A DNA stretch of 64,000 bases from Candidatus Poribacteria bacterium (GCA_965200395.1 CBDAUH010000002.1:244091-308090), one strand, 5' to 3'; counted from the first letter of the stretch, positions 8,480 through 63,415 are shown. Numbers and translations: made by a program. Notes: generated from the letters alone by a model not told the origin.

Positions 8480-8505
8480 AACCCTAATTGTGATAATATC
8501 TTGTT

Positions 8506-8534
8506 TTGACAATCTGATATTTGTATGATATAAT
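8506..8534 (+). promoter_or_regulatory. sigma70-type promoter TTGACA-N17-TATAAT upstream of the 75-aa ORF
   Basis: Perfect consensus hexamers with a 17-nt spacer at 8506-8511 and 8529-8534. Confidence 0.5.
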
Positions 8535-8592
8535 AACAACCTACTTTACCTGATTAACAACACCTCTTGATTGCTTAGAAGGAAATAAATAA

Positions 8593-8820
8593 ATGAAGAA
8601 GGAAGTTGATCTGCTCAATCCAGAAACTAGTGAAGTTATCAAGGAAGTTCGCGAAATAAGGTATAGAATATCAGAAAAATATGATCATGATCTTTATAAA
8701 TTACTTGCTCATTACCAAGAAATAGGCGAAAGATTGCGGAAAACCGGTAAGTACAAGTTCGTTGATCCTGAACCATCTAATCAGAATCCTGCTTTCTCGA
8801 AATCATCAACAAGTGACTGA
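8593..8820 (+). CDS. hypothetical small protein (75 aa)
   Basis: GGAA-rich RBS followed by ATG. Sits downstream of the consensus promoter. Confidence 0.4.
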   Translation: MKKEVDLLNPETSEVIKEVREIRYRISEKYDHDLYKLLAHYQEIGERLRKTGKYKFVDPEPSNQNPAFSKSSTSD

Positions 8821-8957
8821 GAAACTCCGTAGAAATTGTTAACGCAATTGCCACAACCGAGGGCAGATCTGTTCGATGCACAACCTGGAAAGGTTATGCT
8901 ACAAAGAGACACAACCTAGAAAGGTTGTGCTACAAAATATACTTCATAGAACTCACG

Positions 8958-11708
8958 TTACTTTCGTATCAACATTTTACGTGTAGCATTGAAATCGCCT
9001 GCGGTGAGTGCATAAAAATAGATGCCAGTTGCGATGTGTTCACCCTGCGCGTTTTTGCCATCCCAATAGGCAGCACGATGCCGAGCTTCATAAATCCCCG
9101 CAGGTTGCTCTCCTAACGCTAAAGTTCGGACCAACCTGCCATCCACCGCATAGATGTGTATCGTTACTTCTGTAGACTGCGCTAAGCGATAGGGTATCCA
9201 TGTCTCAGGATTAGATGGGTTCGGATAGTTTGCCAGAAGTGCCGTCTTTTTGGGCAACAGAGTAGCAAGCAGTTGTTCAAGCATCGCAATACCTCGCTGG
9301 AAGATTGCGGTTTTGTTTTCCAATTGCTTTGCTTCGTCAATCCAGCGTTGTAGATTTGCTGCTGTCAAAATAACTGTGGGAGCTGTGGGTTCCGTTGCTA
9401 AGGCTGCCATGACCAATGCTAAATCCTCAGCATTGACGATGCCATCACCGTTTATATCTGTATTTGGTATTGCGTCATCTGGTGGGGTTGTGCCGATAGT
9501 CGCAGCGACTAAGACAAGGTCTTCGACATCGACAACACCATCTCTGTTCACATCTTCCGCTATTTGTGTTCCATGCTCTATACCGATAGCAGAAAAAACC
9601 GCCCAGGATTCGATGCCTTTTCCGGTAGCACGGACGGTATTCCTTCCGGGTGTCCATCCTAGTATTAAGTGAGCTTGTGCTCTACCCTGAGCGTTAGTTG
9701 TGGCGGTTGAAGAGGTGAGTTGTCCGCTACCGGTTTCCACAGTAAAGGTGATCAGTACGTTTTTCATGGGCTCACCACTGGCATCTTGTGCCGTCACAAC
9801 GAAGGGAGCTGGAAGGACTGATCCTACAAAGTCTTCCTGGTTATTTCCAGAGACTGTGTAGAGTGCTGGATGGGCTGCATCATTATACTCTATTTTAATT
9901 CCTTTCGCCAGCATAGCAGGGATATGGGTGTTAATAGAAACGTAGCTCAGCGGATTATTCCAAAGCCTCAGCCCGCTACGCCACATTGTTCCTATAAGGT
10001 TTAACGCTAACAGAGGCGATACATCTGAAATGTTGTTGCTGTTAAGCTCCAGCTGAGTTAGGTTCGTCAATGCTGATAGCACAGATATATCTGATATGTT
10101 ATTGTCATCAAGATCCAACCAAGTCAGGTTTTTCAACTCTGGTAGCATAGATATATCTGATATGTTATTGTCGCCAAGCCCTAGCGAGATTAGGTTTGTT
10201 AATCCTGACAGCATAGATATGTCTGATATGTTATTGCTGCTGAGATACAGCTGAGTCAGGTTTGTCAATCCCGATAGCACGGATATATCTGATATGTTAT
10301 CACCCTCAAGATATAGGTAAGTCAGGTTTGTCAATCCTGATAGCACGGATATATCTGATATGTTATTACCGCCAAGATATAGGTAAGTCAGGTTTGTCAA
10401 TCCTGATAGCACGGATATATTTGATATGTCATTGCCATAAAGCTGCAGCCGAATCAATTGTGTCAACTCTGATAGCGCGGACACATCTGAAATGTTGTTG
10501 TCGGAAAGAGATAGGATTTCCAGTTGTTTCAACGTGGACAATGCGGACACATCTGAAATGTTGTTGCTGTCCAGAGTTAACCAAGCTAGGTTGGGAGCAT
10601 GTTCAAGACCGGTGAGGTTCGTTATTCTGCTCTTGGAAGCATTTAGGACATACAAGTTCAGCATAGTGTGCGTTGTGATACTTCCAATCTGTTCTTGCAC
10701 TGCTGCTGCTAAATTTATATCTGGAATTGAAATAGCCTCGGCAGGCGGTAGTAGATCAGTGACATCAATAGGAAAGCTCTGTACTGTCCCCTGTCCATGC
10801 ACGTCAAAAACGACAAGATATACAGTCTCAGTTTTTGTTGTTAAGGCATTTGTGACAAATTCGACGGTGGCACTTGTACGCCCGTTTAATGCTTTACAAC
10901 CGGTCAAAGCTCCTCTACGGAATCTATTAATATTCGAAGTGGGTATGAAAAGCTGTACCTGATGGAATCCGTCTGGATCGGTTATTCTAAAGCGAAGACG
11001 GATAGTGTTTGGTGGGGAGACGAGGCTTGGCGGCAGCATCTCGATAGTTGACGGTTCTGATCGTTCGTTGACGTGGTTTACGTTAGCATTGAAGTAGCGA
11101 TGAACATCTAAAAATTCAGCGGCACATGCAGACAGCTGTGATTGACCAGGTCCGTAAGACATGATATAGCGACCATGTCGGAAATCGTGCCTCAATCCGA
11201 AGGTATGTCCGAGTTCATGGGCAATGAGCTGCCAGTACCATTGGTAAATATATGCGCGACCACTGAATCTATTTCCTGTACCTTGCCCACCCGCATCGAA
11301 TGGAAGTTTCTCCTGTCCATGGGTATCTATCATATAGACAATGATACGTCGTTTGGGAAAGTCAATCTGTTCAGCAGTCTCTTCCTCCCAGTCAAAGTTG
11401 TCTAGGTAACGTGTGTATGGGGATTTTCCAACGACATGATGGACGATGGTGTTTCCGTGTGCGTCGGTTTCAATTTGGAAGGTTTTTCTGCCGTATCCTT
11501 GTCGTTCCATTTCATCGGCGAAGAAGAGTTGTGCTTTTTTGACGAGTGCCTCGATTTCTGCGTCTACGCCGGCGCGGGGTTCCGTATCACTTGCGCGAAA
11601 GTAGACGAGATGAACCATCGGTCGCGCATCTTGTGCCTGTGCGACATGTGTTATGAAAAGCAGTGGAATGAAACATGCAAGTCCAATTGAAAATAGTTTT
11701 CTATTCAT
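8958..11708 (-). CDS. secreted multidomain protein: signal peptide, metzincin zinc-protease (HExxHxxGxxHD), leucine-rich repeats, Ig-like domain, two dockerin-like Ca-binding repeats, T9SS C-terminal sorting domain
   Basis: Signal peptide MNRKLFSIGLACFIPLLFITHVAQA. Metzincin motif HELGHTFGLRHD. About 9 LRRs of the NNISDISxLSGLTNLTxLxL type. Dockerin repeats DVNRDGVVDVEDL and DINGDGIVNAED. C-terminus NYPNPSNPETWIPYRL...GIYFYALTAGDFNATRKMLIRK is a typical Por secretion tail. Confidence 0.8.
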   Translation of the reverse strand: MNRKLFSIGLACFIPLLFITHVAQAQDARPMVHLVYFRASDTEPRAGVDAEIEALVKKAQLFFADEMERQGYGRKTFQIETDAHGNTIVHHVVGKSPYTRYLDNFDWEEETAEQIDFPKRRIIVYMIDTHGQEKLPFDAGGQGTGNRFSGRAYIYQWYWQLIAHELGHTFGLRHDFRHGRYIMSYGPGQSQLSACAAEFLDVHRYFNANVNHVNERSEPSTIEMLPPSLVSPPNTIRLRFRITDPDGFHQVQLFIPTSNINRFRRGALTGCKALNGRTSATVEFVTNALTTKTETVYLVVFDVHGQGTVQSFPIDVTDLLPPAEAISIPDINLAAAVQEQIGSITTHTMLNLYVLNASKSRITNLTGLEHAPNLAWLTLDSNNISDVSALSTLKQLEILSLSDNNISDVSALSELTQLIRLQLYGNDISNISVLSGLTNLTYLYLGGNNISDISVLSGLTNLTYLYLEGDNISDISVLSGLTNLTQLYLSSNNISDISMLSGLTNLISLGLGDNNISDISMLPELKNLTWLDLDDNNISDISVLSALTNLTQLELNSNNISDVSPLLALNLIGTMWRSGLRLWNNPLSYVSINTHIPAMLAKGIKIEYNDAAHPALYTVSGNNQEDFVGSVLPAPFVVTAQDASGEPMKNVLITFTVETGSGQLTSSTATTNAQGRAQAHLILGWTPGRNTVRATGKGIESWAVFSAIGIEHGTQIAEDVNRDGVVDVEDLVLVAATIGTTPPDDAIPNTDINGDGIVNAEDLALVMAALATEPTAPTVILTAANLQRWIDEAKQLENKTAIFQRGIAMLEQLLATLLPKKTALLANYPNPSNPETWIPYRLAQSTEVTIHIYAVDGRLVRTLALGEQPAGIYEARHRAAYWDGKNAQGEHIATGIYFYALTAGDFNATRKMLIRK
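10000..10620. repeat. intragenic near-perfect tandem DNA repeats of about 66 bp encoding the LRR units
   Basis: The unit GTCAGGTTTGTCAATCCTGATAGCACGGATATATCTGATATGTTATT... recurs about 9 times with few substitutions. Confidence 0.8.
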
Positions 11709-11739
11709 AAATACTTCTCCACATTTCCAGGTTGCGTCC

Positions 11740-12365
11740 CCGATGCACAACCTAGAAAGGTTGGTTGTCAGAATCGCGGATTTTCTCGGATTACGCGGAT
11801 TTTCGCGGATTTCCTCTGCCGTAGTCTGTTTTATTTTGTATACCGTTTACTTATTATTCGTGTCCCATGATGCACAACCTAGAAAGGTTGTGCTACAAAG
11901 AACGTTGTCCCCGCTGCAAAACCTGGAAAGGTTATGCTACAAAGAAGCAAAAATAAAAAGGAGACGCTTACAAAATCAAAAAAACTATAGCACAAAACAA
12001 TCCGCGTCAATCCGTGTAATCCGCGAAAATCCGTGATTCTGACATTTGTAGACGTTTACTTCTTGTTTGTGTCCCTTGATGCCCAACCTGGATGAAGATT
12101 AACTTACTAATTGGGTAATTTCTTGGAGAAGCCGGTACGGTTAGGAAGCTGTACCTACAGGGCCTGGAGAATATCGAATTGCCCAAATATTTTCTTAAAC
12201 TTCATAAAGGTTGTGCTACGAATATCCTTTGTATTTCGGATGCCGGACTCACGTAATTGTACGTCTTTGCTTCGTTATTCTAAGGCGGATTTCATAAGAT
12301 ACAAAATTCATAGATGTTTATGGAACTCACATTATGGTATAATTCATCCTTTTCATTGGGAAGCG
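11740..12365. repeat. non-coding repeat cluster: MITE family M2 with embedded palindromic R1 hairpins (GCACAACC-N6-GGTTGTGC), plus R2 fragments
   Basis: Repeated units gatgcacaacctagaaaggttgtgctacaaag, and aatccgcg motifs. Segment 12190-12340 matches 21548-21720 in reverse orientation. Confidence 0.7.
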
Positions 12366-13712: not shown

Positions 13713-14250
13713 ATATGTTAGAGTCTACAATGATATTTTCTTGTTCAGGAGGTTTTGATTTATATTTTACAGAGTCTGCCATGACGAGGCAAAAAATGCA
13801 AGTGCAATACAGAGCTATTCAATTGTCGCGGACTTAGCGTCCTCCACAATTCTGACAAAGATAATCCGGGGAATGCCTAAGTGGCATTCATACCTTTGAT
13901 TTAGCGTAATCCGCGATTCAGAAAAGATCACGCAAGAAGACACAGAACTCTTAAAATCCGCGTAATCCGCGATTCAGACGAGTTCTTTGTAGCATAACCT
14001 TTCTATGTTGTGCCTCTTTGTAGCATAACCTTTCTATGTTGTGCTTTTCCAATCCTGAAAAAAATCAGCCACCCCTATCCTACGAAAAAACACCTCAAAA
14101 CAAAAAACTCTTAAAATCCGCGTAATCCGCGTAATCCGCGTAATCCGCGATTCTGACAAACAAAAATCCGCGTCCAAAATAGACTTTCGAATGCCTCTAT
14201 TGCTTACCTCACTTAGGTTGACAGGGAAGAAAGCTTTGCAGTTAGGTTTC
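13713..14250. repeat. composite repeat region: R2 element (aatccgcgt 9-bp tandem sub-repeats, palindrome GGAATGCCTAAGTGGCATTC) plus 2 R1 hairpins. The first ~290 bp recur as a direct repeat at 14793-15140
   Basis: 13716-13905 is near-identical to 14795-14985; 14101-14200 is near-identical to 15045-15140. Confidence 0.75.
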
Positions 14251-14792: not shown

Positions 14793-15140
14793 ATGTTAGA
14801 GTCTACAATGATATTTTCTTGTTCAGGAGGTTTTGATTTGTATTTTACAGAGTCTACCATGACGAGGCAAAAAATGCAAGTGCAATACAGAGCCATTCAA
14901 TTGTCGCGGACTTAGCGCCCTCCGCAATTCTGACAAAGATAATCCGGGGAATGCCTAAGTGGCATTCATACCTTTGATTTAGCGTAATCCGAGATTCAGA
15001 AACCACCCGGTCATCCCAATCCTACGAAAAGCACCTTGAAGCACCAACCCCCTAATCCGCGTAAATCCGCGTAATCCGTGTAATCCGCGATTCTGACAAA
15101 CAAAAATCCGCGTCCAAAAACGACTTTTGAATGCCTCTGG
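14793..15140. repeat. second copy of the R2-containing direct repeat (includes a degenerate copy of the TPR-gene 5' region)
   Basis: See 13713-14250. Confidence 0.7.
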
Positions 15141-29659: not shown

Positions 29660-29736
<77 letters not shown>

Positions 29737-29940: not shown

Positions 29941-31341
29941 ATGTTAACCAAAGCCGATATTGAACGTGAAAAATTAAGACACAATACATCGTTCTTCAGG
30001 GCAATCCTTGCACCGACAAATGAGGAGCGACAACTGCTTTTTACGCTAAAAAACATCGGCAAGTTACCGGATGATTTTGATGGCGATTTGTTTATCCCAT
30101 TACTTAATCACGCCAATGCAAAGATTCGATGTCTTGCCATAAAAAATGTTGGAAAGTTAAAAGACGAACGTTTTTTAACGAACCTCATTAAATTTGCGGA
30201 AACAGAGAAAAATACACTTGCACGGCGCGAAGCTGTTTCGGCAATCGGTAGACTCAAAACCGAAAACGCTATTCCGATTTTAACACGGTTTACTACCGAT
30301 ACTGATCCGAAGGTTGTATTGCAGGCGGTACGGGGTTTGCTTTATTTTAAAAGACATCGAGAAACGCAAATAGTATTAACATCGCTTGCTGAACATCCGA
30401 ATGAATTGATACAGGAACAGATAGCAAGAGAACTACAACAACATGACTACACAGATTCTTCTAAAACACTAAACCATCCAGCTAGTCCAGACACGCTTAA
30501 AAATGTAATGGTATATGCCGATGTTCAAGATGTGTTAAAAGTTATTCCGGATGAATCTATTCATTTGACTTTTACTTCACCACCTTATTACAATGCCCGT
30601 GATTATACCATTTTCCCGAGTTATGAGGCGTATCTTGATTTTCTAACATCAGTTTTCAAAGAGACGCATCGTATTACAAAAGAGGGTAGATTCTTTGTAC
30701 TAAACACGTCACCTGTTATTGTGCCACGTATTAGTCGCGCCCATTCCAGCAAACGATATGCAATTCCATACGATATTCATCCACGGCTAACAGAAATTGG
30801 TTGGGAATTTATTGATGACATTATATGGATGAAACCTGAATACGCTGCAAAGAATCGAAACGGTGGTTTTTTCCAACATCGTAAACCGCTTGGATACAAA
30901 GCAAACTCTATCACTGAAAGTGTGATGGTGTATCGTAAGAAAACAGACAAACTCATTGATTGGAATCTCCGTCAGTATGAAGAGGATATTATTAACACGA
31001 GCAAAGTGATGGGTGAATATGAAAAAACTAATGTTTGGCAAATAAATCCGGCAACAGATAAAGTTCATCCCGCAATTTTTCCACATGAATTAGCTTCCCG
31101 TATCATTCAGTATTACTCATTTAAAGGTGATCTCGTCTTTGACCCATTTGGTGGAAGCGGTACTGTCGGACATGTCGCTCTGCTACATGAAAGATATTTT
31201 TTTCTCTGTGAAAAGATGGAAGAATACGTTGAGCGTGCCAAACAAGCACTTGATACAGCACTATTTTCTGGTATAAACCCTCGTATATTTTCACTTACTG
31301 AATTAAGTTCACGCATAGCAGAGGAGTCACAAAAACCATGA
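29941..31341 (+). CDS. DNA methyltransferase (beta-class N4/N6, PF01555-like; SPPY then FDPFGGSGT) with an N-terminal HEAT/PBS-lyase-like repeat domain
   Basis: HLTFTSPPYYNARDY (motif IV) precedes DLVFDPFGGSGTVGHVA (motif I). The first ~170 aa carry repeated ...IRCLAIKNVGKL.../...RREAVSAIGRL.../...VVLQAVRGL... helices. Confidence 0.7.
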   Translation: MLTKADIEREKLRHNTSFFRAILAPTNEERQLLFTLKNIGKLPDDFDGDLFIPLLNHANAKIRCLAIKNVGKLKDERFLTNLIKFAETEKNTLARREAVSAIGRLKTENAIPILTRFTTDTDPKVVLQAVRGLLYFKRHRETQIVLTSLAEHPNELIQEQIARELQQHDYTDSSKTLNHPASPDTLKNVMVYADVQDVLKVIPDESIHLTFTSPPYYNARDYTIFPSYEAYLDFLTSVFKETHRITKEGRFFVLNTSPVIVPRISRAHSSKRYAIPYDIHPRLTEIGWEFIDDIIWMKPEYAAKNRNGGFFQHRKPLGYKANSITESVMVYRKKTDKLIDWNLRQYEEDIINTSKVMGEYEKTNVWQINPATDKVHPAIFPHELASRIIQYYSFKGDLVFDPFGGSGTVGHVALLHERYFFLCEKMEEYVERAKQALDTALFSGINPRIFSLTELSSRIAEESQKP

Positions 31342-32321
31342 CTGTTACTGGCGGAGTAATTAAGAACATTATCCGAAAACTTTTTGCTGGAGCGGATTAT
31401 CGTTCCGAAGTGCTGGCATTGATTAACGCTGAATTCTTGCAATATGCTGTCGATTTTTTCAAACGTGTAGCTTGTGCAAAGCTGGATAATCAATCTGTAA
31501 CAGTTGACTGGTACAAAAAGGAATTCCTCAATTCAGATTCATATCGACCCGAAGAAATTGCTATTCACTCAGGACTGAACAAGAAAACAATTACAAATGC
31601 ATATAGTTCTGCCCGGAAACAAATAGTGTTGGAAGTATCCCTTGAACATTATAATTCACTTTATAACGCTATTAACAGTTTGACCGAACAAGATGAGCTT
31701 GATATTGCCCTAACATTAAAATTTAGAGATGTTAGTGTTGATTTAAATATTAATGAAAGTTTGATTGTCATCAATACTCTCGCCGTCAAACGCTCTGCAC
31801 TCCGTGGAGCATTATGGAGTACATCAGGAAAACAGGTAGAAAAACCTTTGATGATAACACTTTGTGCCCTTTTTCAAGTCCCAATAAAATATTTTGATCA
31901 GAGGAACCTACCAGAATCTGAACGCGAATCCGATTTTTATCTTTTTGACGAAACAGGGAAAGATTATCCTTGTGAAGTAAAATTAATGGGAAAAGGGAAT
32001 CCCGAAAGTGCTGACGCAGTATTCGCTCGCGGGGGTCGCGTCCTTGTTGCTAACAAACTTTCTGAGACTAATAAACAACAGATGGACAAAGATGGTATCC
32101 TTTGGGTTGAACTTCAAACTGTAGACGGTTATAAGAGATTTGAACATGTGCTAAAGGCATTGTCAATCCCTTGTAAACCTTTTGCCGGTGATCTCGAAAC
32201 TGCGTTAGACAAAATTTTATCCATTATTCTTTCTGATGATGTACAGAATTCTGTAACTCCTGAGATAGTTTTACAAGAGACCTTACTTAAAGACTCAGAA
32301 TTATTGATTGAATTTGAATGA
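31338..32321 (+). CDS. putative Type II restriction endonuclease partner (candidate PD-(D/E)XK: FD-x9-EVK)
   Basis: ATGA overlap with the MTase stop. Motif FYLFDETGKDYPCEVKLMGKG. No other recognisable family. Confidence 0.4.
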   Translation: MTVTGGVIKNIIRKLFAGADYRSEVLALINAEFLQYAVDFFKRVACAKLDNQSVTVDWYKKEFLNSDSYRPEEIAIHSGLNKKTITNAYSSARKQIVLEVSLEHYNSLYNAINSLTEQDELDIALTLKFRDVSVDLNINESLIVINTLAVKRSALRGALWSTSGKQVEKPLMITLCALFQVPIKYFDQRNLPESERESDFYLFDETGKDYPCEVKLMGKGNPESADAVFARGGRVLVANKLSETNKQQMDKDGILWVELQTVDGYKRFEHVLKALSIPCKPFAGDLETALDKILSIILSDDVQNSVTPEIVLQETLLKDSELLIEFE

Positions 32322-33070: not shown

Positions 33071-34492
33071 ATGAACCATATTGTAAAAAATACATCTGCC
33101 CTATTCGGTGCACACATTTTCGGTCGCCTTGGATCGCTCATATTAACACTCTGGCTGATGCCTCGGTTTTTTACGGAGAGCGATTTAGGCGGCTATTTCG
33201 TTGCAATCGCCCTAACCAATCTGATTGCAAGTCTAACAGAACTCGGTATACAAAGTCCATTGATTCGGGAAATGACGTTAAGTCTATCCGAAACACGTCA
33301 TTATCTCGGCAATGCACTTCTTGTTCGTCTAATCTTGTCTGTTATAGCATACACGGTCATGATTGTCAGTGGTATAATTTTGTGGTCTACCTCAACAATT
33401 TTGACAATGATAGTTTATTTAGGGTTGGCAGAGATTGTCAATTCCATTGCACAGCTTTATAGATGCGTCTTCCGAGCACATGAGGAGATGAAATTTGAAG
33501 CGTTGACAGTGCTGGCAGAACGTGGAACACTTTTTATTATAGGTGGTGCGGCAATCCTACTCGGATACAATATTGTAAATGTATGTCAAGTTTGGTTGTT
33601 AGCAGGATGTTTTAATCTTGTTCTGAGTATCGGATTTGTGCGATTTCGCTTCACACCGCTCAGTTTTGAACTGAGCTGGCAGGTAATAGTTGTACTAATG
33701 CGACAAGCACTCCCTTTTGCAGTTGGTAATCTGTTCAACTTAATCTATTTTCGTATTGACGCAATTATGCTGTCAAAACTTAGCCCTGATCGTATGGATG
33801 CTAACACGTGGTACGGATTGGCGTATACGTTAGTCAATGCTATTACAATCTTACCTGGGGCATTTCTGATGGGTGCAATGTTTCCTCTGCTTTCCCGCCT
33901 ATATGAAAATGATCGCGATAGATTATCGCAGGCATATACATTCGGTGTACGGTGGATGGTAATATGTGGCATACCGATAGCAGTTGGACTTGCAGTGCTC
34001 TCACACGAAATTTCGAATCTGTTATTTTATCGGTACACACCAGGGACCATAGAAAAAATTTCGACGGCCATGCAGTGGCTAAGTGCAACATGTGGCACAG
34101 TTTTCTTGTCAACCGTGGTCATTACTGTGCTTCGCGCTGCAGATAAACGCCTTGTGTTTTCAATACTTATGGGGACAACAGCACTATTGAACATCATATT
34201 GAACTTTATATTGATACCACGACTCAACCACGTGGGCGCAGCAATTGCAATGGTAATTAGTGAGGCATATCTACTAACCATTGGGTTTAGCTATATTACC
34301 AAACGGATTGTAAATCTAACTGAAATTAGATTTATTTTTAAGGTTATCCTCATTTCTGCTGTGATGGGAATAGGTTTGGTGTTGTTAAAGGGAATACTAT
34401 CTATTTGGATTCTGATTCCATTGGCGATAGTTGCTTATTTTATTGGGATTGCGTTATGGGGTGAATTTCGGATTAGGTTTGAGTTTGATTAA
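33071..34492 (+). CDS. polysaccharide biosynthesis / oligosaccharide flippase (Wzx/MOP superfamily) membrane protein
   Basis: About 12 predicted TM helices. N-terminus KNTSALFGAHIFGRLGSLILTLWL is typical of the Polysacc_synt family. Confidence 0.6.
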   Translation: MNHIVKNTSALFGAHIFGRLGSLILTLWLMPRFFTESDLGGYFVAIALTNLIASLTELGIQSPLIREMTLSLSETRHYLGNALLVRLILSVIAYTVMIVSGIILWSTSTILTMIVYLGLAEIVNSIAQLYRCVFRAHEEMKFEALTVLAERGTLFIIGGAAILLGYNIVNVCQVWLLAGCFNLVLSIGFVRFRFTPLSFELSWQVIVVLMRQALPFAVGNLFNLIYFRIDAIMLSKLSPDRMDANTWYGLAYTLVNAITILPGAFLMGAMFPLLSRLYENDRDRLSQAYTFGVRWMVICGIPIAVGLAVLSHEISNLLFYRYTPGTIEKISTAMQWLSATCGTVFLSTVVITVLRAADKRLVFSILMGTTALLNIILNFILIPRLNHVGAAIAMVISEAYLLTIGFSYITKRIVNLTEIRFIFKVILISAVMGIGLVLLKGILSIWILIPLAIVAYFIGIALWGEFRIRFEFD

Positions 34493-34542
34493 AACTCAAG
34501 AGGAGTCTTGCGCTCAAGTTTCAAAACATATACAATAGCAGT

Positions 34543-37500
34543 ATGAATTTTCAAAGACACTGTGACCAATATCTACAGACAATAAACGAAACACGATCCG
34601 ACCCGAATGCAACCCCTGAACTCTCTTTGCTGCCACATTTACAAGCATTCCTGCAAAAGGTTCCCGTTGAACATTTTGCCTGTCCCAACAACAGCCCCAA
34701 AATAAGATTCACACTGGAACCCAGAACAATCAACCAGATCGGACGACCGGACATCATCGCAACAGATGGATTGTTACCTATCGGCTATATTGAAGCGGAG
34801 GAATACGGCACAGACCTAAACAACCTAACAGGACACGCCGCACAACAGAACAAACGTTTTAAGGAAAACCTTGATAACTTTATCCTTACCAATTTTATTG
34901 ATTTTCAGCTGTGGGTAGATGGGAAATGTAACACAACAGCGCGAATTACAGACAACACCGATGATTTAGCGATATTATTAGAACGATTCCTGAACGCATC
35001 TATCCAAATCGGCACACCGGAAGCACTCGCAAAATACCTTGCAAGACGGACACGAGAACTCCAAACACAGATTACCGCAACGCTTAACGACCAAAACAGC
35101 GAAACCTATCAGTTGTATAAGGCATTCAGAGAAACACATCTCTTTACACTAACACCCAGAGATTTTGCTGACATGTACGCACAAACGCTCTCTTACGGAC
35201 TATTCGCCGCACGCTGCACCTTACCGAATGAAACCTATTTCCTACGACAAACCGCTGCTGAGACACTACCAGAATCCAATCCATTCCTAAAAGACCTTTT
35301 TTATCAGATTGCATCTCCAAAACTCACGAAAAACATTAAATTTATTCTGGATGACATCGCAAGACTATTACGTAACGTTCCAACAGAAATGCTCCAAACG
35401 TCATTAGCACCTACAGATGACTTTGAAGACCATGTTATCCATTTCTATGAACCATTCCTAAAAGAATATAATTCAAAACTCAAGATCGATCGCGGCGTAT
35501 TCTACACACCGCGCCAGGTAATCTCTTACATCGTACGTTCTGTGGACGCACTGCTCAAATCGGAACTCAACAGACCCGACGGACTCGCAGATGACAACAC
35601 CCTCATCCTTGACCCCGCAACAGGCACAGGTGGATTCCTGCTGTCCGTGCTTGACCACATCCGAGAATACGTTACCGACAATTATGGAACAGGAGAGTGG
35701 CAGCAATATGTCAACGAGCAATTAGTCAAACGCATTTTCGGATTTGAACTACTTGTCGCTCCCTATACAATTGTACATCTCAAGTTGAGTCAATTCTTAC
35801 AAGAGCATGGATGGCACGACAATGAACGTCTCCGTATCTATCTCACTAATACATTAGAACAACCCGCAGAGACAGTGGAGACACAACCCTTTGCACCGTT
35901 TCTCTCTGACGAAGCAAACGAAGCACTCTCTGTGAAACGGGACGACCCTATCCTCGTCATCCTCGGCAATCCACCCTATCCAGAGGATTCTGCCAACCCA
36001 AGTCGTGATAGTAATAGAGAGTTAACTTTCATTGGAAAACTTATTGAAGATTACAAACAGTTAGATGGAGAATCGCTTGATGATAGGAATTTAAAAATGC
36101 TTCAGTCAGATTATGTAAAATTCACTCGGTGGGCACAGTGGCGTATTGATAGAAACGGTGAAGGTGTTATTGGCTATATTGTTAACAATAGTTTTCTTGA
36201 CGGTCGAGCCTTTCGCGGGATGCGGCAGAGTCTAATGAAAAGTTTCAACACTGTTTACATACTCAATTTACACGGTAGCATCAGAAGACACGAAGCAGTA
36301 CCAGAAGGTCAGAGAGATGAAAATGTTTTTGACATTTCACAAGGGGTTTGCATCTTGTTGTGTGTCAAAAAACGCGACAATCGTGCCTTGTCAAAGGTGT
36401 ATCATGCGGATATATGGGGATCGCGGCAGGAAAGATATAATTTGCTTTTGCAGACCGATGTTCAAACCACACAATGGTGTGAACTACAACCGGCATTACC
36501 ACTTTGTCTTTTTGTGCCGCAAACTGCAGAATATAGCACTGAATACGAAGCAGGTTGGAGTATTAACGACATCTTTCATACAGGTTCGGTTGGAATGGCT
36601 ACTGGTCGGGATAGATTGACGATTCATTGGACTGCTGGAGGTATCCGTGAAACTGTGAACGACTTTATTTCACTTTCTCCAGACGAAGCACGGGAACAGT
36701 ATAATTTGGGAAGGGATACTCATCATTGGCAGATTCCCCGCGCTCAGGCAGATCTTCGTAATAACCCAAATGTTGAACAACACGTAACGACAATTCGCTA
36801 CCGTCCGTTTGACACACGCTGGACCTATTACACAGGACAGACAGGTTTCCACTCACGCCCAAACTATGATATTATACGACATTTACACGGTGTTGAAAAT
36901 ATTGCTCTCTGTGTCTGTCGTATTGTGACAAGTTCTGTTTGGAATCATGTTTTGATAACTGACAAAGTAACTGAAAAGAGTTATATTTCAAACAGAGGAA
37001 GTGAATCCACCCACGTATTCCCACTTTACCTATATACTGATTCAGAGGGATTATTAGGTGCAACAGAACGCGAACTGAATTTCAAACATGCTTTTCTCAC
37101 CGCACTCGCTGAGTCATTGGAATTACCACAGACTCCCCCGTTTGGCCTTCCCGAAGGCATCACACCAGAGCAGATTCTCGCTTATATTTATGCGGTGTTG
37201 AATAGTGCCAAATATCGTGAACGATACTATGAATTTCTGAAATACGATTTCCCGCGTATCCCTTTACTGCAGGATATTGACGAATTCTGCGTACTTGCAG
37301 AGTATGGACAAGAATTAATTGATTTACATCTCTTGAAGGACAGGAACATACCGCATCGTCATTTATTTGAGGGTGAAGGAGATGGTATCGTCTCAAAACT
37401 TCGTTATGAAGATGGCAATGTCTGGATCAACAGCACACAGCATTTTACGAATGTACCCCAGAAGTGTGGGAATATGAGATCGGAGCATATCAGGTGTGTG

Positions 37501-37626
37501 AGAAATGGTTGAAGGATAGGAAGGGCAAAGAACTAAGTCGTGATGATCTCAGACAGTATCGTTCTATTTTGGTTGCTGTTGCAGAGACGCTGCGAGTGAT
37601 GGCGGAGATTGATTGGGTGCTGTAGT
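34543..37626 (+). CDS. MmeI-like Type IIG restriction-modification enzyme (N-terminal nuclease-like domain, gamma-class N6-adenine MTase, C-terminal specificity domain); apparent -1 frameshift near 37460 (CCCC run)
   Basis: Motif I LILDPATGTGGFL and motif IV ILGNPPY. After the in-frame stop at 37510-37512 the +1 frame continues as EVWEYEIGAYQVCEKWLKDRKGKELSRDDLRQYRSILVAVAETLRVMAEIDWVL, the conserved Type IIG/ISP C-terminal module. Confidence 0.7.
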
Positions 37627-37672
37627 AGATTAGCAAATGGAAATCATTGGTACATACAAACATTATACGTTT

Positions 37673-38302
37673 TCATGTGCCTTTCCAGTTCATATCAGCT
37701 ACAGATTTGAACACAGAATCAACTGCTCCGAAAAGCGTTGATAAATTCGCTAATGTAAAGTCTGTTCTGTTTTGCGTAAAGGTATTTCCGATAAGTCGTC
37801 CGAACTGCCATAATGTTCCATCGGTGACAATGCCGTAAACAGGTAAGACCGTGCTGCCATTTAGATTTTTTGCATTTATTTTTTGGGCAGCGACTAATTC
37901 TGCCAGACATTGTCCCCATCCCTGCTCAAAGTCGTTTTTCTTCGCCTCAACGAGTAGAATCAGCGGGGTTCCCACAACGGTTTTGCCTAATTCGGACCTG
38001 GTAGAAACAAAATAATCTGGTGTTCCGTTCAAAACATCGTCATAGGTGATGGATTGTTTTATCCAGAGCGCGTACTGATCGGCGTACGCTTTATAGTTCT
38101 CCTTCAGAACAGGAAATATTATCGTCTCACATCGTGATGCTTCAGATGAAAATACATTGAGGTACTCACGAGTAAATTCAAAGTCCCGCAAGAATTCTGA
38201 GGAAGGGGATAACGGTTCAACTTCAACGAAGTCCTCTTCAGTGTATGTGACTCTGAACCTTTCTTGTACTTCTGAGATTTTTTGAAAATCGCTGAATGCC
38301 AT
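37673..38302 (-). CDS. standalone HsdR-N-like PD-(D/E)XK nuclease-fold protein (209 aa)
   Basis: PDYFV ... LILLVEAKK ... GQCLAELVAAQ ... VYGIVTDGTLWQF follows the HSDR_N pattern (PD...ExK...Q...Y...G.xTDG..W.F). Confidence 0.55.
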   Translation of the reverse strand: MAFSDFQKISEVQERFRVTYTEEDFVEVEPLSPSSEFLRDFEFTREYLNVFSSEASRCETIIFPVLKENYKAYADQYALWIKQSITYDDVLNGTPDYFVSTRSELGKTVVGTPLILLVEAKKNDFEQGWGQCLAELVAAQKINAKNLNGSTVLPVYGIVTDGTLWQFGRLIGNTFTQNRTDFTLANLSTLFGAVDSVFKSVADMNWKGT

Positions 38303-38359
38303 GATATTACTTCTCTGTTAAAAGCAGGAACGGTTTCATAAACAAGAGCGCAGCAGGCG

Positions 38360-38902
38360 TTACGCTTCCTTATCAGGTTCAGACGGTTCTTCGGTGTCAA
38401 CGACATTGAGCTCCCGTAAGGCTGTCTCTACACCATTCCTGAGGATTGGATTATCCCCTACCCTCTTTCTCATATTATTAGCTATCTTGGCTCGCTCTTC
38501 TGGTGTTTTTCGGGACATTCGCTTTGTCATCCATTTTCTGATAGCTTCACTTAGGGGTAGTACCTGTTCACGGAAGTCTGATATTTCTTCCTCCGAAACG
38601 TGCTCCTCTTTCATGACTTTTAGGCTTGTTTTCAGTAACCCCGGGTTGTCCGCTACGAGGCTAAAGTCTACCTCTATTTCTTTTCCAACTGCTTTCACTC
38701 TTTCTGGGTCTTCCTCGGCTGCGTTGATGAACTGGTTAATGTCTTCGTAGTGCTTTTGCATGGCTTGTGCCTCAGCTTCGGCTTGTGCCTCAGCTTCAGC
38801 TCGTCTCTCTGATGCATCTGCAGTTTCTTCAGGGGTAATAAGGATGTCTTTGGGATCCATTTTGTCACTCCTTCTATATTTATATGTAGGGGAGCAACCC
38901 AC
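38360..38902 (-). CDS. hypothetical acidic protein with an AEAEAQ repeat (180 aa), co-oriented upstream of the HsdR-N-like gene
   Basis: ORF. RRAEAEAQAEAEAQAMQK low-complexity helix. Start may be 38858 (MDPKD). Confidence 0.35.
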   Translation of the reverse strand: MGCSPTYKYRRSDKMDPKDILITPEETADASERRAEAEAQAEAEAQAMQKHYEDINQFINAAEEDPERVKAVGKEIEVDFSLVADNPGLLKTSLKVMKEEHVSEEEISDFREQVLPLSEAIRKWMTKRMSRKTPEERAKIANNMRKRVGDNPILRNGVETALRELNVVDTEEPSEPDKEA

Positions 38903-39099
38903 ACCGATGTAGGTCGGTCGCTCCAGATGCTTCTATCCGGTACTAACGTGAGTTCCGTAAATATTTTTATCAGTTTTGTATCCTCTGGAAGCCGCTATGA
39001 ATTTCTTCATATCTATAGAGAACTCCTTTATGCTTATGAGAATAGACTATTTCATTATAACAAAAAAGTTCTCTTTATGCTACATTATTATAGAATTCA

Positions 39100-39676
39100 C
39101 CCAGAGTCATTCAATTGTTGCGGACTTAGCGTCCTCCGCAATTCTGAAAAAGATGATCCGGAGAATGCCTAAAGGGCGTTCATACCTTTGATTTAGCGTA
39201 ATCTGCGATTCAGACGAGTTCTTTGTAGCATACCCTTTCTGGGTTGTGCCTTTCTAATCCTGACAAAAAACCAGCCAACCCTATTCCATGAAAAACACCT
39301 CAAAACACAGACTCTTAAAATCCGCGTCAATCTGTGTAATCCGCGTAATCCGTGATTCTGACAAACAAAATCCGCGTCAATCTGCGTAATCCGCTATTCA
39401 GAAAAAGAGCATGCAAGAAGACACAGACTCTTAAAATCCGCGTCAATCTGCGTAATCCGCGTAATCCGCGATTCTGACAAACAAAATCCGCGTCAATCTG
39501 CGTAATCCGGTGAATGCCTCAATGGCGTTCATACCGTTGATTTGGCGTCAATCCGCGATTCAGAAAAAAGCACGCAAGAGGACACAGACTCTTAAAATCC
39601 GCGTCAATCTGCGTAATCCGCGTAATCCGCGATTCTGACAAACAAAATCCGCGTCAATCTGCGTAATCCGGTGAAT
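39100..39676. repeat. tandem array (about 3 units of ~180 bp) of R2 repeat modules (aatccgcgt sub-repeats, attctgacaaacaaaatccgcgtcaatctgcgtaatccgg, gaatgcc...ggcgttc palindrome)
   Basis: Units begin at about 39280, 39425 and 39585. Confidence 0.75.
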
Positions 39677-40993
39677 AGGGTTATTTAGTTTTATAGATAT
39701 TCATTTTATCAAGTTAACTGTGAGTAAAGGTTTTGATGCATATTCCTTTATTTTATCAGCGATCCGTGTTATGCCTTGAAAACGGAATACGGATAATGCG
39801 GTATTTCGTAAAGCGGCCATGACTTGTGGAATAGCCCCGCATCTGACAGGTGATGCGTCCTCGCCGAGTAGCACATCGCGCATCCAATGCGACTTGTTCT
39901 CTATTGCCCAATGGCCTCTCCGTAAAGCAAGTAAGCGTTCTGCGGATGCCTCACTCGGTTTCAGGCTCGTAATCCCATAGGTAGTGCGGGTTGTCTCTTC
40001 TCCTGTCTTCATATTTTTGGAAGTATAGCAATATTGGATCACTTGTGCTACGCCCGGCCAATCCAGATATGCGTTGAGACTTGTGCTTGCCTTGATACAT
40101 CGCGTCTCAAGTCTGCCATGCGACTTTTCAATCGTCTCATGCATGTATATCGGTTTCCCTAAAGTAGGGTGTGTTGTGTCTTCAGAAACCGCGTCAGGCA
40201 CGCCTTGAAAAAGTTTTTCAATCGCTTCTAACAGGTCCGGTTGATTGCCTTTAACAGGCAGCATATAGTCGCCCCCGCTGTTTATGATTCCGTGGCAGAA
40301 AGAGCGTTGTGTCAAAAGGGCATCCGTTGTGATAACTTTGCCTGCTACATCAAACGCTTTGAGGATTTCCGTTGATACCGGTATTTCATTGGTTTTGTCG
40401 CTGACACCTCGCTGCGTGAGGGTGATCCCTAACTCATGAGAGACGACGGAGAGTAAATGGCTGATCATCGCACCACTTTTTTTAGACGCACGCAGGGTTT
40501 TGCCATCTATAGCGACTGCGTCGGAACACCCCCGCAAATCAGGGCACTCTGCTAATGCGGCGTTTACCCATTTTGACAGGATGTTTTCTAATGCCTCAAC
40601 GTCCAACTTTTTCAACAGATTATGGATAGTTGCGGCACAAGGCGTTTTGTGATGTGTGAACCCGAGTGCTTTTGTGAGTGCGGGCTGTGAGCGTGCCCAG
40701 GTAGCGATGGATGTATACCCTTTATGCCCGCACATCAATCCAACGACTAAAAGTGCGAGGATTGCTTTCAACGGGTGTCGTTTCCCTTTTTCCTTGCGTG
40801 GGTCTGTAAGTTCTGCTAACATATCCATTAAGTGGCAGGACTTTTTTCTTGTCATTCTTCACCTCAAAAGATCGTAAGTTTTTAAGGTGAAGTATAGCAG
40901 ATATACCATGAAAAATCACGGTATATCTGCACATCCTAAAATATTAACGATTGTGATAAAAAACAACTAAAATACATAAAACTAAATAACCCT
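39677..40993 (-). mobile_element. ISAs1-family insertion sequence inside an R2 repeat; IRs GGGTTATTTAGTTTTAT; 11-bp TSD ATCCGGTGAAT
   Basis: Inverted repeats at 39678-39694 and 40976-40992. ATCCGGTGAAT at 39666-39676 and 40994-41004. The flanks rejoin to a normal R2 sequence. Confidence 0.8.
39701..40855 (-). CDS. ISAs1-family transposase (H-repeat-associated protein type)
   Basis: ...LALRRGHWAIENKSHWMRDVLLGED... is the ISAs1 signature. N-terminal DDE_Tnp_1_assoc-like region. Confidence 0.8.
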   Translation of the reverse strand: MTRKKSCHLMDMLAELTDPRKEKGKRHPLKAILALLVVGLMCGHKGYTSIATWARSQPALTKALGFTHHKTPCAATIHNLLKKLDVEALENILSKWVNAALAECPDLRGCSDAVAIDGKTLRASKKSGAMISHLLSVVSHELGITLTQRGVSDKTNEIPVSTEILKAFDVAGKVITTDALLTQRSFCHGIINSGGDYMLPVKGNQPDLLEAIEKLFQGVPDAVSEDTTHPTLGKPIYMHETIEKSHGRLETRCIKASTSLNAYLDWPGVAQVIQYCYTSKNMKTGEETTRTTYGITSLKPSEASAERLLALRRGHWAIENKSHWMRDVLLGEDASPVRCGAIPQVMAALRNTALSVFRFQGITRIADKIKEYASKPLLTVNLIK

Positions 40994-41247
40994 ATCCGGT
41001 GAATGCCTAAACGACATTCATACCGTTGATTTGGTGTAATCCAAAATTCTGACAAACAAAAATCCGCGTCCAAAATCGACTTTTAAATGCCTCTGATGTT
41101 GAGAGAGTGTTGATAGATAGCGGTTTCTGAGTACTTTGAAGAAATCCTAGTAAATTAAAAATACCATCAAAACACAGAAATGTCAACTATTGTTAATTTA
41201 ACTCAAAAATATAGACGTGAACTTGTACCTACATAGAGAGAAAGCGA

Positions 41248-42519
41248 TCATGCATAAAGTTCTTGCAACACCTCAAAATAATTTGGAAACGTTTTGCTAA
41301 CACACTCTGGATCGTTAATCTGTATTCCAGACACTTTCAACCCAATCAGAGAGAATGCCATCGCTACTCGATGGTCACTATAGGTATCAACTGCAGCAGG
41401 TGTAATTGGGGAAGGAGAGATTTCAAGACCATCTTGATGTTCAACCACATCCACCCCTAATTTTCGCAGCTCCATCACCATCGCGTGAATTCTGTCAGTC
41501 TCCTGCCAACGCGTATGTTCAATGTTTCGAATAGAGACTTTGCTATCGGCAAACGGGGCTATCGCAGCAAGGGTTAGTGCGGTATCAGAAATATCCTTCA
41601 TATCCACATCAATCCCCTTTAACTGGTGGGGCCCTTGGACAGTTATACCTACATCCGATACAGAAACTTGACATCCCATCTGTTCTAAGACGTGCACAAA
41701 TTGGATATCACCTTGTGAAGAATTTGTGGACAAATGCTGGACAGTGACACATCCTCCCGTGAGTGCTGCAGCGGCGAAAAAGTAGGACGCACTAGAGGCA
41801 TCCGGTTCAATGTGGTATGCACGCGGTTGATACTGCTGCCTACCTACAATGTGGAACTGTCTATAATCTTTGTGACTGACATGTGCACCGAACGTCTCCA
41901 TTACTGCCAACGTGATGTCGATATAAGGGGTCTTGAGATCACCAATTACCTCTATCTCCATTCCCACTTTAGTGTAGGGTGCAATGAGCAGCAACGATGT
42001 TAGAAACTGGCTACTTTTGCTTGCATCAATTGTAGTTTTTCCGCCTTTTAGTCCCGCTGCTTGAACGATGATTGGCAGATGACCGTTCTCATATTGCGAA
42101 CGCGCGGAAACACCGAGCTGCGTCAAGGCATCAAGTAAATCCGACATAGGCCGGCTGCGCCGCATCGGTTCATCCCCATCAAGCACAAATTTTCCGCGTC
42201 CGAGAGAGACATAGCTCACAAGTGATCGTGTCGTTGTACCTGAGTTGCCTACATAGAGCTCTGCTCCGTGGATAGGTATATTACCACCGTTTCCTGTGAC
42301 AGAAAAGGTAGATTGTTCCCTATTCTCCGATATTTGAATACCGAGTTTACGAAGTGCGTTGCACATATAGTGTGTATCATCACTGAAAAGTGCACCTGTC
42401 AACGTGGAGTCTCCGTCTGCAAGTGCAGCAACTAACAACGCACGGTTGGTATAGCTTTTGGATCCGGGAACCTCTATTGTAACGTTGGGTGGGGTATGAA
42501 GTGGTTGTATTTCTATCAT
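41248..42519 (-). CDS. aroA: 3-phosphoshikimate 1-carboxyvinyltransferase (EPSP synthase)
   Basis: VTIEVPGSKSYTNRALLVAALADG...; 423 aa. Confidence 0.9.
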   Translation of the reverse strand: MIEIQPLHTPPNVTIEVPGSKSYTNRALLVAALADGDSTLTGALFSDDTHYMCNALRKLGIQISENREQSTFSVTGNGGNIPIHGAELYVGNSGTTTRSLVSYVSLGRGKFVLDGDEPMRRSRPMSDLLDALTQLGVSARSQYENGHLPIIVQAAGLKGGKTTIDASKSSQFLTSLLLIAPYTKVGMEIEVIGDLKTPYIDITLAVMETFGAHVSHKDYRQFHIVGRQQYQPRAYHIEPDASSASYFFAAAALTGGCVTVQHLSTNSSQGDIQFVHVLEQMGCQVSVSDVGITVQGPHQLKGIDVDMKDISDTALTLAAIAPFADSKVSIRNIEHTRWQETDRIHAMVMELRKLGVDVVEHQDGLEISPSPITPAAVDTYSDHRVAMAFSLIGLKVSGIQINDPECVSKTFPNYFEVLQELYA

Positions 42520-56641: not shown

Positions 56642-56757
56642 TCCCGGCAGCGACCTACTTTCCCACGGGGTCACCCCCGAAGTATCATCAGCGCTGAAGG
56701 GCTTAACTACCGTGTTCGGAATGGGAACGGGTGTGTCCCCTTCGCTGTAACCACCGG
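56642..56757 (-). rRNA. rrf: 5S ribosomal RNA
   Basis: Reverse complement TCCGGTGGTTACAGCGAAGGGGACACACCCGTTCCCATTCCGAACACGGTAGTTAAGCCC...CGCTGCCGGGA matches 5S helices. Confidence 0.8.
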
Positions 56758-56824
56758 AAAGATATACATAATTATTTGACAACTGAATAGCGTGTGAGGA
56801 ATCGGTAGAGAAAAATAAGTTATC

Positions 56825-59858
<3,034 letters not shown>

Positions 59859-59949
59859 ATATTTTTATTCTACCGATTTACCCTCTACTATTCAGTTGTC
59901 AAAGAACGCCGCCTATATTCCCAGAAATGCAAGCATTTCATTTAGGCGA

Positions 59950-60022
59950 TGGAGATGAGCGGAGTTGAACCGCTGACCTACTGCGTGCAAAGCAGTTGCT
60001 CTCCCAGCTGAGCTACACCCCC
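59950..60022 (-). tRNA. tRNA-Ala (anticodon TGC), no encoded CCA, upstream of 23S in the operon
   Basis: Reverse complement GGGGGTGTAGCTCAGCTGGGAGAGCAACTGCTTTGCACGCAGTAGGTCAGCGGTTCAACTCCGCTCATCTCCA. G3:U70. Anticodon loop TTTGCAC. Confidence 0.85.
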
Positions 60023-63284: not shown

Positions 63285-63415
63285 CTAATGTAACGTGAGT
63301 TCCATAAACATTGTAGCATAACCTTTCTAGGTTGTGCCTCTTCGTAGCATAACCTTTCTAGGTTGTGCCTCCTACAAAAAATGTCTTATTTCCAAACTCA
63401 CGTTAATGTATTCTC
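63285..63415. repeat. MITE family M2 copy (TIRs AACGTGAGTTCCATAAACAT / ATTTCCAAACTCACGTT) containing two R1 palindromes
   Basis: Direct inspection. Same architecture as 21548-21720. Confidence 0.7.

Follow-up and report, generated by a model that had tools for sequence, protein, structure and literature searches.

A frameshifted Type IIG restriction-modification gene and a predicted stand-alone PD-(D/E)xK nuclease at a probable defence-island edge of a sponge-associated Poribacteria genome

The 64,000-nucleotide stretch of DNA analysed here, called the window throughout, belongs to a sponge symbiont, Candidatus Poribacteria bacterium (GCA_965200395.1 CBDAUH010000002.1:244091-308090), and carries at 34543-38902 a single-chain Type IIG/IIL restriction-modification (RM) gene, a convergent gene for a 209-aa stand-alone protein with a nuclease fold and an acidic open reading frame (ORF). 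For brevity the Type IIG/IIL gene is designated c2, the stand-alone nuclease gene c0, and the loci used for comparison are given L numbers. We consider it moderately probable that this region represents the edge of a Poribacteria defence island with a decayed c2 and an autonomous defence-type nuclease, c0, rather than a three-gene nuclease module. An initial annotation of the same DNA had proposed a nuclease and an acidic partner standing as a module beside an orphan methylase. Its observations turned out to be largely real, with corrections, while its interpretation is only partly supported: the linkage between the nuclease and the neighbouring Type IIG gene is a non-random one, but the module itself is refuted. 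For these comparisons, the closest public genome is the metagenome-assembled genome (MAG) OZ242381.1 (locus L009). Furthermore, a c0-seeded search keeping one genome per species yielded 80 Poribacteria loci, in which all neighbouring ORFs were clustered. Copies of c0 at least about 75% identical to the window copy were treated as orthologues, and they form one clade.

The c2 gene occupies 34543..37625 on the plus strand, as a frameshift-interrupted frame. Its layout consists of a nuclease-like domain, a helical connector, a gamma-class N6-adenine methyltransferase and a target-recognition domain (TRD). The features expected of Type IIG/IIL enzymes that are found in c2 are a single polypeptide with an N-terminal PD-(D/E)xK-fold domain, the gamma-class N6-adenine methyltransferase motifs and the C-terminal TRD, but the canonical D...(D/E)-x-K triad and an intact reading frame through the TRD are both lacking. 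The methyltransferase catalytic-motif region (35611..35979, +) extends from motif I, DPATGTGGF (35611-35637, +; aa 357-365), to motif IV, GNPPY (35965-35979, +; aa 475-479), and the target-recognition region (36568..37464, +) is covered by Pfam Type_ISP_C at aa 676-974. Pfam matched Type_ISP_C with 2.8e-67 and N6_Mtase with 3.2e-13, the PADLOC profile REase_MTase_IIG matched aa 8-975 with 5.6e-224, and a sequence search of the PDB returned LlaBIII (1e-46), LlaGI (1.5e-41) and DrdV (2.9e-40). Judged by these matches, c2 is predicted to be a DrdV/BpuSI-type Type IIG/IIL restriction-modification enzyme.

The label "MmeI-like" first given to this gene was imprecise, since the Type IIG assignment stands but the MmeI domains do not, the nearest solved structures being LlaBIII/LlaGI and DrdV. 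Indeed, none of the MmeI-specific Pfam models (MmeI_N, MmeI_hel, MmeI_Mtase, MmeI_TRD and MmeI_C) matched c2 significantly, the best being MmeI_Mtase at E = 0.11, and MmeI_N matched a single one of 18 Poribacteria c2 orthologues, at E = 0.12. The N-terminal PD-(D/E)xK-fold domain (34543..34992, +) holds E26, E59, P69-D70 and E84-A85-E86. Its profile gave no significant match against the PDB and Pfam, with only faint HSDR_N and MmeI_N traces, and a fold comparison was therefore needed for this part of the protein.

As it stands, the c2 ORF runs from 34543 to 37512 and encodes 989 aa. The final 56 codons (PEVWEYEIGAYQVCEKWLKDRKG...DWVL*, starting PEVWEYEIG) run on in a different frame and end at 37625. 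The two frames meet at a run of four C (CCCC, 37456..37459, +), which is one base short of the full-length frame with its expected ...NVPPEVWEY..., and one C added at this point gives a 1027-aa protein ending ...AEIDWVL* at 37625. The gene had been described at first as a single-chain RM enzyme of about 1027 aa; its start at 34543, the methyltransferase motifs and Type_ISP_C are as described, but that length is only reached by reading through the frameshift. Three independent Logan read assemblies (L006-L008) carry the identical 4-C run, with c2 called as two pieces, and the frameshift is therefore real and not a one-off assembly error. In L009 the c2 orthologue is intact with 1020 aa; likewise, the sister genomes have intact c2 genes with diversifying TRDs. 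Aligned with its L009 orthologue, the window c2 is 88-100% identical over aa 1-450 and forms a mosaic with 56-82% identity in the TRD half, a pattern commonly seen where active RM families exchange specificities. Taken from its sequence, the c2 enzyme of this strain is probably inactive through the one-base deletion, which truncates the TRD. In a homology search with the c2 N-terminus no protein longer than about 520 aa was returned, and this search was not used for estimating the frequency of such breakage.

Within the nuclease motif of c2 (nt 34744-34803, +), which reads GRPDII...GYIEAEE at aa 67-87, Glu86 is found in place of the canonical Lys, as the initial annotation had pointed out. The pattern RPD-x13-IEAE is invariant in 18 Poribacteria c2 orthologues, whose first 300 aa are 63-97% identical, whereas homologues at 35-38% identity display the canonical GAPD...GYIEAK. 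A wider set of c2 relatives was composed of 80 metagenome loci seeded by c2 and of two E-A-E-bearing contigs (L095 and L096), hence 82 loci with flanks of up to 10 kb; about 14 of these enzymes have E-A-E versus about 66 with E-A-K or E-T-K. The whole N-terminal domain is strongly constrained: E26, D70, E84, E86, H98, Q102 and N103 do not vary. In the c2 subfamily the E-A-E motif is followed by a conserved TGH insertion. The active site of DrdV is made of E25, D64, E79 and K81, and mutation of K81 abolishes catalysis (DrdV structure paper). In c2 the matching residues are E26, D70, E84 and E86, the Glu taking the K81 position. In BamHI, the residue at the corresponding Lys position is E113, which is catalytic, and the D94N/E113K mutant is cleavage-deficient. 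Since a Glu at that position is catalytic in BamHI, the inactivity of c2 cannot be concluded from E-A-E. Moreover, because the motif is invariant in the Poribacteria orthologues and common to related enzymes in other samples, it is a constrained subfamily trait and not a sign of decay. Sequence comparison places c2 in a subfamily with a PD...E-x-E nuclease motif instead of PD...E-x-K. The proposal of an inactivated endonuclease, in other words of an orphan methylase, is accordingly not the best reading of a motif shared by the family; it is the frameshifted TRD that looks decayed, and this frameshift is better evidence than E-A-E for a loss of c2 function in this strain.

The c0 gene is found at 37673..38302 on the minus strand, convergent with c2 and 47 bp past the restored c2 stop, which confirms the tail-to-tail arrangement reported for the two genes. 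Its 209-aa product displays the motifs TPDYF (94-98), LLVEAKK (116-122), GWGQC (128-132) and VTDGTLWQF (159-167), and E59, PD96, V-E119-A-K121, GWGQ131C and W165 are conserved in the family alignment. The AlphaFold model (predicted local distance difference test, pLDDT, 95.4) shows the restriction-endonuclease core fold with D...(D/E)-x-K in the canonical strands, which is what defines the PD-(D/E)xK superfamily, and this fold is nearest to the Type IIG and HsdR nuclease domains. Given the modelled fold, c0 is confidently predicted to be a PD-(D/E)xK nuclease, from an uncharacterised family, with E59, D96, E119, K121 and Q131 as the putative catalytic set. These residues are conserved in 89-91 of 91 copies, whether c2 is nearby or not. 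The description of c0 as an HsdR-N-type nuclease is borne out at the fold level, and the motifs named for it are present, but it has no match to Pfam HSDR_N (PF04313 / PF13588). Indeed, Pfam and NCBIfam searches of c0 and 62 relatives gave no significant match at all, HSDR_N, Uma2 and every PDDEXK family included. When the c0 sequence was searched against the PDB, only coronavirus spike matches at E of at least 0.12 were returned, and these were discarded as chance. On the other hand, the PADLOC Cas-associated profile PD_DExK (PDLC01472) matched aa 53-201 with 4.1e-45, over profile positions 2-143 of 146. The statement that the locus is not a catalogued architecture has to be qualified in that the c0 family is already catalogued under this profile; a literature search on the Cas "PD-DExK" accessory turned up just a table entry, "possible nuclease".

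The c0 family is large, with 2591 matches in 1174 clusters at 50% identity, nearly all of them stand-alone proteins of about 200 aa and some of them annotated as cyanobacterial "hypothetical proteins". Identity across species is about 80%, and in the 80-locus set a Poribacteria genome can hold up to five or more copies. No homologues were found in the phage genomes searched. Plasmid-borne copies occur in cyanobacteria. Plasmid pMIC7113.03 of Allocoleopsis franciscana PCC 7113 (NC_019740.1, L178, 6353-7621) carries two tandem 206-aa homologues with 44-45% identity, in which "PE" replaces "PD" and which lie between csx7 and a RAMP gene of a type III CRISPR-Cas effector operon. In the 64-kb window itself no CRISPR-like array was detected and the neighbours of c0 are not cas genes, the ORFs of the wider window not having been scanned for cas genes. 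In three Poribacteria genomes the c0 nuclease is fused, as the C-terminal domain, into a larger protein of roughly 1000 aa (L038, C-terminal part about 10001-10603; L041; L044:722-3700), which has an N-terminal sacsin-like ATPase (PADLOC TmtA 7e-42) and a sigma70_r2 domain (MzaA-like) and holds the same island position as the solo c0. Other copies lie in a metabolic array, where a sulfatase gene has a same-strand c0 paralogue on each side (L045-L047, L051, L053, L066, L068 and L080; about 7800-10620), either of which is missing in some species. Of the distant homologues, one lies within a kdp operon of Pseudanabaena and another next to remnants of HinfI/NmeDI_C, and no common partner emerged for them.

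The multi-copy state of c0 and its presence or absence between packed genes had prompted the idea of a mobile or homing-type cassette. This was rejected, as the junction alignments show neither terminal repeats nor target duplications. Since the "empty" site in L057 retains the last ~30 nt of c0, the presence and absence of the gene reflect deletion.

Within Poribacteria, c0 and c2 are non-randomly linked. A c2 orthologue is present downstream of c0, on the opposite strand, in 26 of the 39 orthologue loci compared to none of the 42 paralogue loci, with a gap between the two genes ranging from -52 bp to 8.5 kb. The c0...c2 bracket is found with at least three left flanks (aroA/dapA, MlrC and ADH/PhyH) and several right flanks, and the DNA between the two genes contains Zorya type II (ZorA2/B2/E2), a PD-T4-4/AriA-like ATPase, PDC-S31, a PIN-domain (toxin-type) gene and DUF433. 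It is because of this Zorya, ATPase and PIN cargo, of the sacsin-ATPase fusion and of the homologues in a type III CRISPR-Cas operon that the c0 family is placed among defence-type effector nucleases. The gene is also intact in 13 orthologue loci with no c2 in the stretch examined, as well as where c2 is split. Outside Poribacteria, none of the 82 loci of c2 relatives, the E-A-E enzymes included, has a c0-like gene in its flanks. An obligatory coupling of c0 and c2 is argued against by this absence, by the intact c0 copies without c2 and by the paralogues in metabolic arrays.

The third gene of the cluster is an acidic ORF (38360..38860, -) of 166 aa with 39 D+E and 25 K+R, whose AEAEAQ repeats are encoded by an 18-bp tandem repeat of 2.2 copies (38762..38801). 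Its most probable start codon is ATG 38860, preceded by an AAGGAG ribosome-binding site and also the one called in the Logan contigs; a start at the upstream GTG 38902 would give 180 aa. The acidic repeat protein of the initial annotation thus exists, with a likely length of 166 aa instead of 180. When the window was compared to L009 by blastn, homology covered 34490-38314 and resumed at 41262, which leaves a strain-specific segment (38315..41261) absent from L009, with a breakpoint 12 bp ahead of the start codon of c0. This segment contains the acidic ORF, AATCCGCGT-type repeats (39319-39676) and an ISAs1-family transposase gene (39701-40855, -; NCBIfam transpos_ISAs1 4e-69), and stands in for about 1.2 kb bearing a DUF433 gene in L009. 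There, a 99%-identical c0 has the DUF433 gene upstream and no acidic gene. A small DUF433 (antitoxin-type) gene is likewise observed directly upstream of c0 in L010, L011, L013, L019 and L001, with a 36-bp gap in the last of these, while in the window it is replaced by the insertion that bears the acidic ORF and the insertion sequence (IS).

The two minus-strand genes had been described as an operon. This is doubtful, because a terminator-like hairpin lies between the acidic ORF and c0 and because the homology with L009 stops 12 bp before c0. The acidic protein has two homologues among 5.8 billion proteins, and both lie in the order GNDGG-repeat secreted protein, acidic protein, membrane protein; the membrane protein has 798 aa and a weak STT3-like similarity in L004, and in L005 it runs off the end of the contig. 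No c0 gene is present near either homologue and none of the 80 c0 loci contains an acidic gene, so that the pair is not conserved together. Since the acidic homologues sit in a different operon and the insertion ends 12 bp upstream of c0, the acidic ORF and c0 do not make up a module. We thus regard it as very improbable that the two minus-strand genes are co-transcribed as a toxin-antitoxin or effector-regulator pair. They are same-strand neighbours 57 bp apart, and DNA mimicry by an acidic protein might in principle block a nuclease, but a partner with two homologues, neither beside c0, contrasts with the 2591 homologues of c0 itself, the L009 copy does without it, the junction falls in an IS-containing strain-specific segment and the hairpin separates the genes. 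Conservation of the pair elsewhere had been set beforehand as one of the deciding observations, and it is on its absence that the pair is refuted.

According to the reading that we favour, namely a defence-island edge with a decayed c2 and an autonomous c0, the methylation and cleavage activities of c2 would have been lost together, harmlessly, because both are on one polypeptide, the truncated enzyme being inactive in this strain. The c0 protein would be an autonomous Mg2+-dependent PD-(D/E)xK DNA endonuclease, in which D96, E119 and K121 would bind the metal and serve as general base with the assistance of E59 and Q131, and it would most likely act as a dimer by analogy with its structural relatives. 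We infer that it may work as a defence-type effector nuclease against non-self DNA, independently of both c2 and the acidic protein. As for the acidic ORF, it would have arrived with the IS-associated insertion, its normal home being another operon. Several points weigh against this reading. The linkage of c0 orthologues with c2 across at least three chromosomal contexts hints at a functional tie, and many c0 paralogues are found in tightly packed housekeeping-type gene arrays, which fits repair or housekeeping at least as well as defence. Moreover, the 989-aa frameshifted c2 product could in principle still be partly functional, and the nuclease activity and substrate of the c0 family are themselves predictions.

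The functional tie could be that of a split restriction enzyme, in which the E-x-E nuclease domain of c2 would be catalytically dead and serve as a docking or dimerisation platform, and c0, which resembles that domain in structure and has an intact Lys, would join c2 on the DNA in trans and cut. We hold this to be unlikely, and just as tentative is the corresponding view that in sponge-associated Poribacteria a K-to-E DrdV-like subfamily handed DNA cleavage to c0 in a two-gene "split Type IIL" system. The nuclease domains of DrdV do work in trans and in pairs, and must pair for cutting both strands (DrdV structure paper). The K81-equivalent mutation of DrdV abolishes catalysis, as mentioned above, and c0 and the c2 N-terminal domain have the same structural neighbours (DrdV, BpuSI, mS30/mL37, 3ijm and HsdR). 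An hhalign comparison pairs E59 with E26, PD96 with PD70 and VEAK with IEAE, at a weak probability of 4.6%. Furthermore, the c2-linked c0 copies belong to one clade, with gaps down to -52 to 47 bp, and their linkage holds over the left-flank and right-flank contexts listed above. Against this stand the absence of c0-like genes at the 82 loci of c2 relatives, the intact and highly conserved c0 copies where c2 is absent or broken, the paralogues 65-70% identical with no c2 nearby and the unrelated defence genes that can lie between c0 and c2 over as much as 8.5 kb. A Glu at the Lys position is moreover compatible with activity in BamHI, and the strong constraint on the c2 N-terminal domain, invariant residues included, does not favour a dead one. 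If a split Type IIL system were nevertheless true, c0 and c2 would in addition flank a hotspot where other defence systems integrate, and the same free nuclease module would be reused in type III CRISPR operons and as the C-terminal effector of the sacsin-ATPase/sigma-like defence protein.

Alternatively, c0 might represent a housekeeping family of DNA repair, recombination or structure-specific nucleases, its Cas and defence associations being incidental. Its identity of about 80% across species would suit such a role, and so would the several paralogues per genome in conserved metabolic arrays with neither immunity nor methylase partner, the loss of copies through simple deletion with no signs of mobility and the lack of phage homologues among the genomes searched. 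However, repair nucleases are rarely retained in at least five paralogous copies, and the fusion of the domain to a TmtA/MzaA-like defence-type protein, the homologues within a type III CRISPR-Cas effector operon, the orthologue adjoining a Zorya, toxin-antitoxin and RM hotspot and the plasmid-borne copies in cyanobacteria all argue for defence; a housekeeping function consequently appears improbable to us.

Elsewhere in the window, a separate Type II RM pair lies at 29941-32321 (+). Its first gene encodes an N4/N6 methyltransferase of 466 aa that carries a HEAT-repeat region at its N-terminus (PADLOC MTase_II 1e-82), and its second gene a restriction endonuclease of 327 aa (PADLOC REase_II 3e-95). 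The pair adjoins a tRNA gene (29664-29736, -), is absent from L009 and looks like a strain-specific island insertion. The AATCCGCGT-type short tandem repeats are intergenic and are found at 11774-12035, 13955-14149 and 15053-15089 in addition to 39319-39676, with 15 matches to a 17-mer versus none expected by chance; at 39384-39676, beside the ISAs1 transposase gene, the repeat unit measures 161 bp and occurs 1.8 times. They may constitute an element similar to repetitive extragenic palindromic (REP) sequences or to miniature inverted-repeat transposable elements (MITE). Another dispersed repeat family is a 31-bp element (GTAGCATAACCTTTCTAGGTTGTGCC...), with perfect tandem pairs at 13984-14044 and 63313-63371 and a related copy at about 39225-39255 in the strain-specific segment. 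A GC-rich stretch with no long ORFs at 56642-60022 (-) is explained by the rRNA and tRNA genes that occupy it, namely 23S rRNA (56819-59853), 5S rRNA (56642-56758) and a tRNA (59950-60022). Finally, a 66-nt periodic repeat (10018-10500, 7.3 copies, 77% matches) lies in a 930-aa ORF at 8958-11750 (-), which probably encodes a repeat protein with 22-aa units.

Compared to known systems, the components of this region belong to known kinds, and what is left is of moderate interest, namely the as yet unstudied family of solo nucleases and the Type IIG subfamily with the E-x-E motif. Among the DrdV/BpuSI/MmeI-type Type IIG (Type IIL) enzymes, c2 is distinguished by the Glu (E86) that replaces DrdV K81 throughout its subfamily, followed by the conserved TGH insertion, and the window copy differs further by the frameshift 56 codons before its end. 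It departs from the MmeI family by the lack of any match to the MmeI-specific Pfam domains. Its methyltransferase-TRD module is closest to that of the Type ISP enzymes LlaBIII and LlaGI, but their helicase is absent from c2. Whether the E-x-E DrdV-like subfamily still cuts would reveal how plastic the active site is. The c0 protein matches the CRISPR-Cas accessory "PD-DExK" (PADLOC PDLC01472, a CasFinder-type profile) end to end, whereas the window c0 is a solo gene with several paralogues per genome and with no cas genes or array detected nearby. Unlike the HsdR N-terminal domain and the Uma2/DUF820 stand-alone proteins, it is extended by about 55 aa at the N-terminus and by a helix at the C-terminus. 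The mitoribosomal mL37 / mL65 (mS30) pseudo-dimer ("repurposed endonucleases"), also among its structural neighbours, consists of eukaryotic, non-catalytic ribosomal proteins, and the sequence identity is only 9-13%. The c0 protein has the fold of a Type IIG nuclease domain standing on its own. Its family comprises about 1,170 clusters at 50% identity, has no model in Pfam and figures in catalogues only as a Cas accessory; it is multi-copy in Poribacteria and cyanobacteria. Together, c0 and c2 mark a recognisable defence-island hotspot in Poribacteria, useful for mining the immunity of sponge symbionts.

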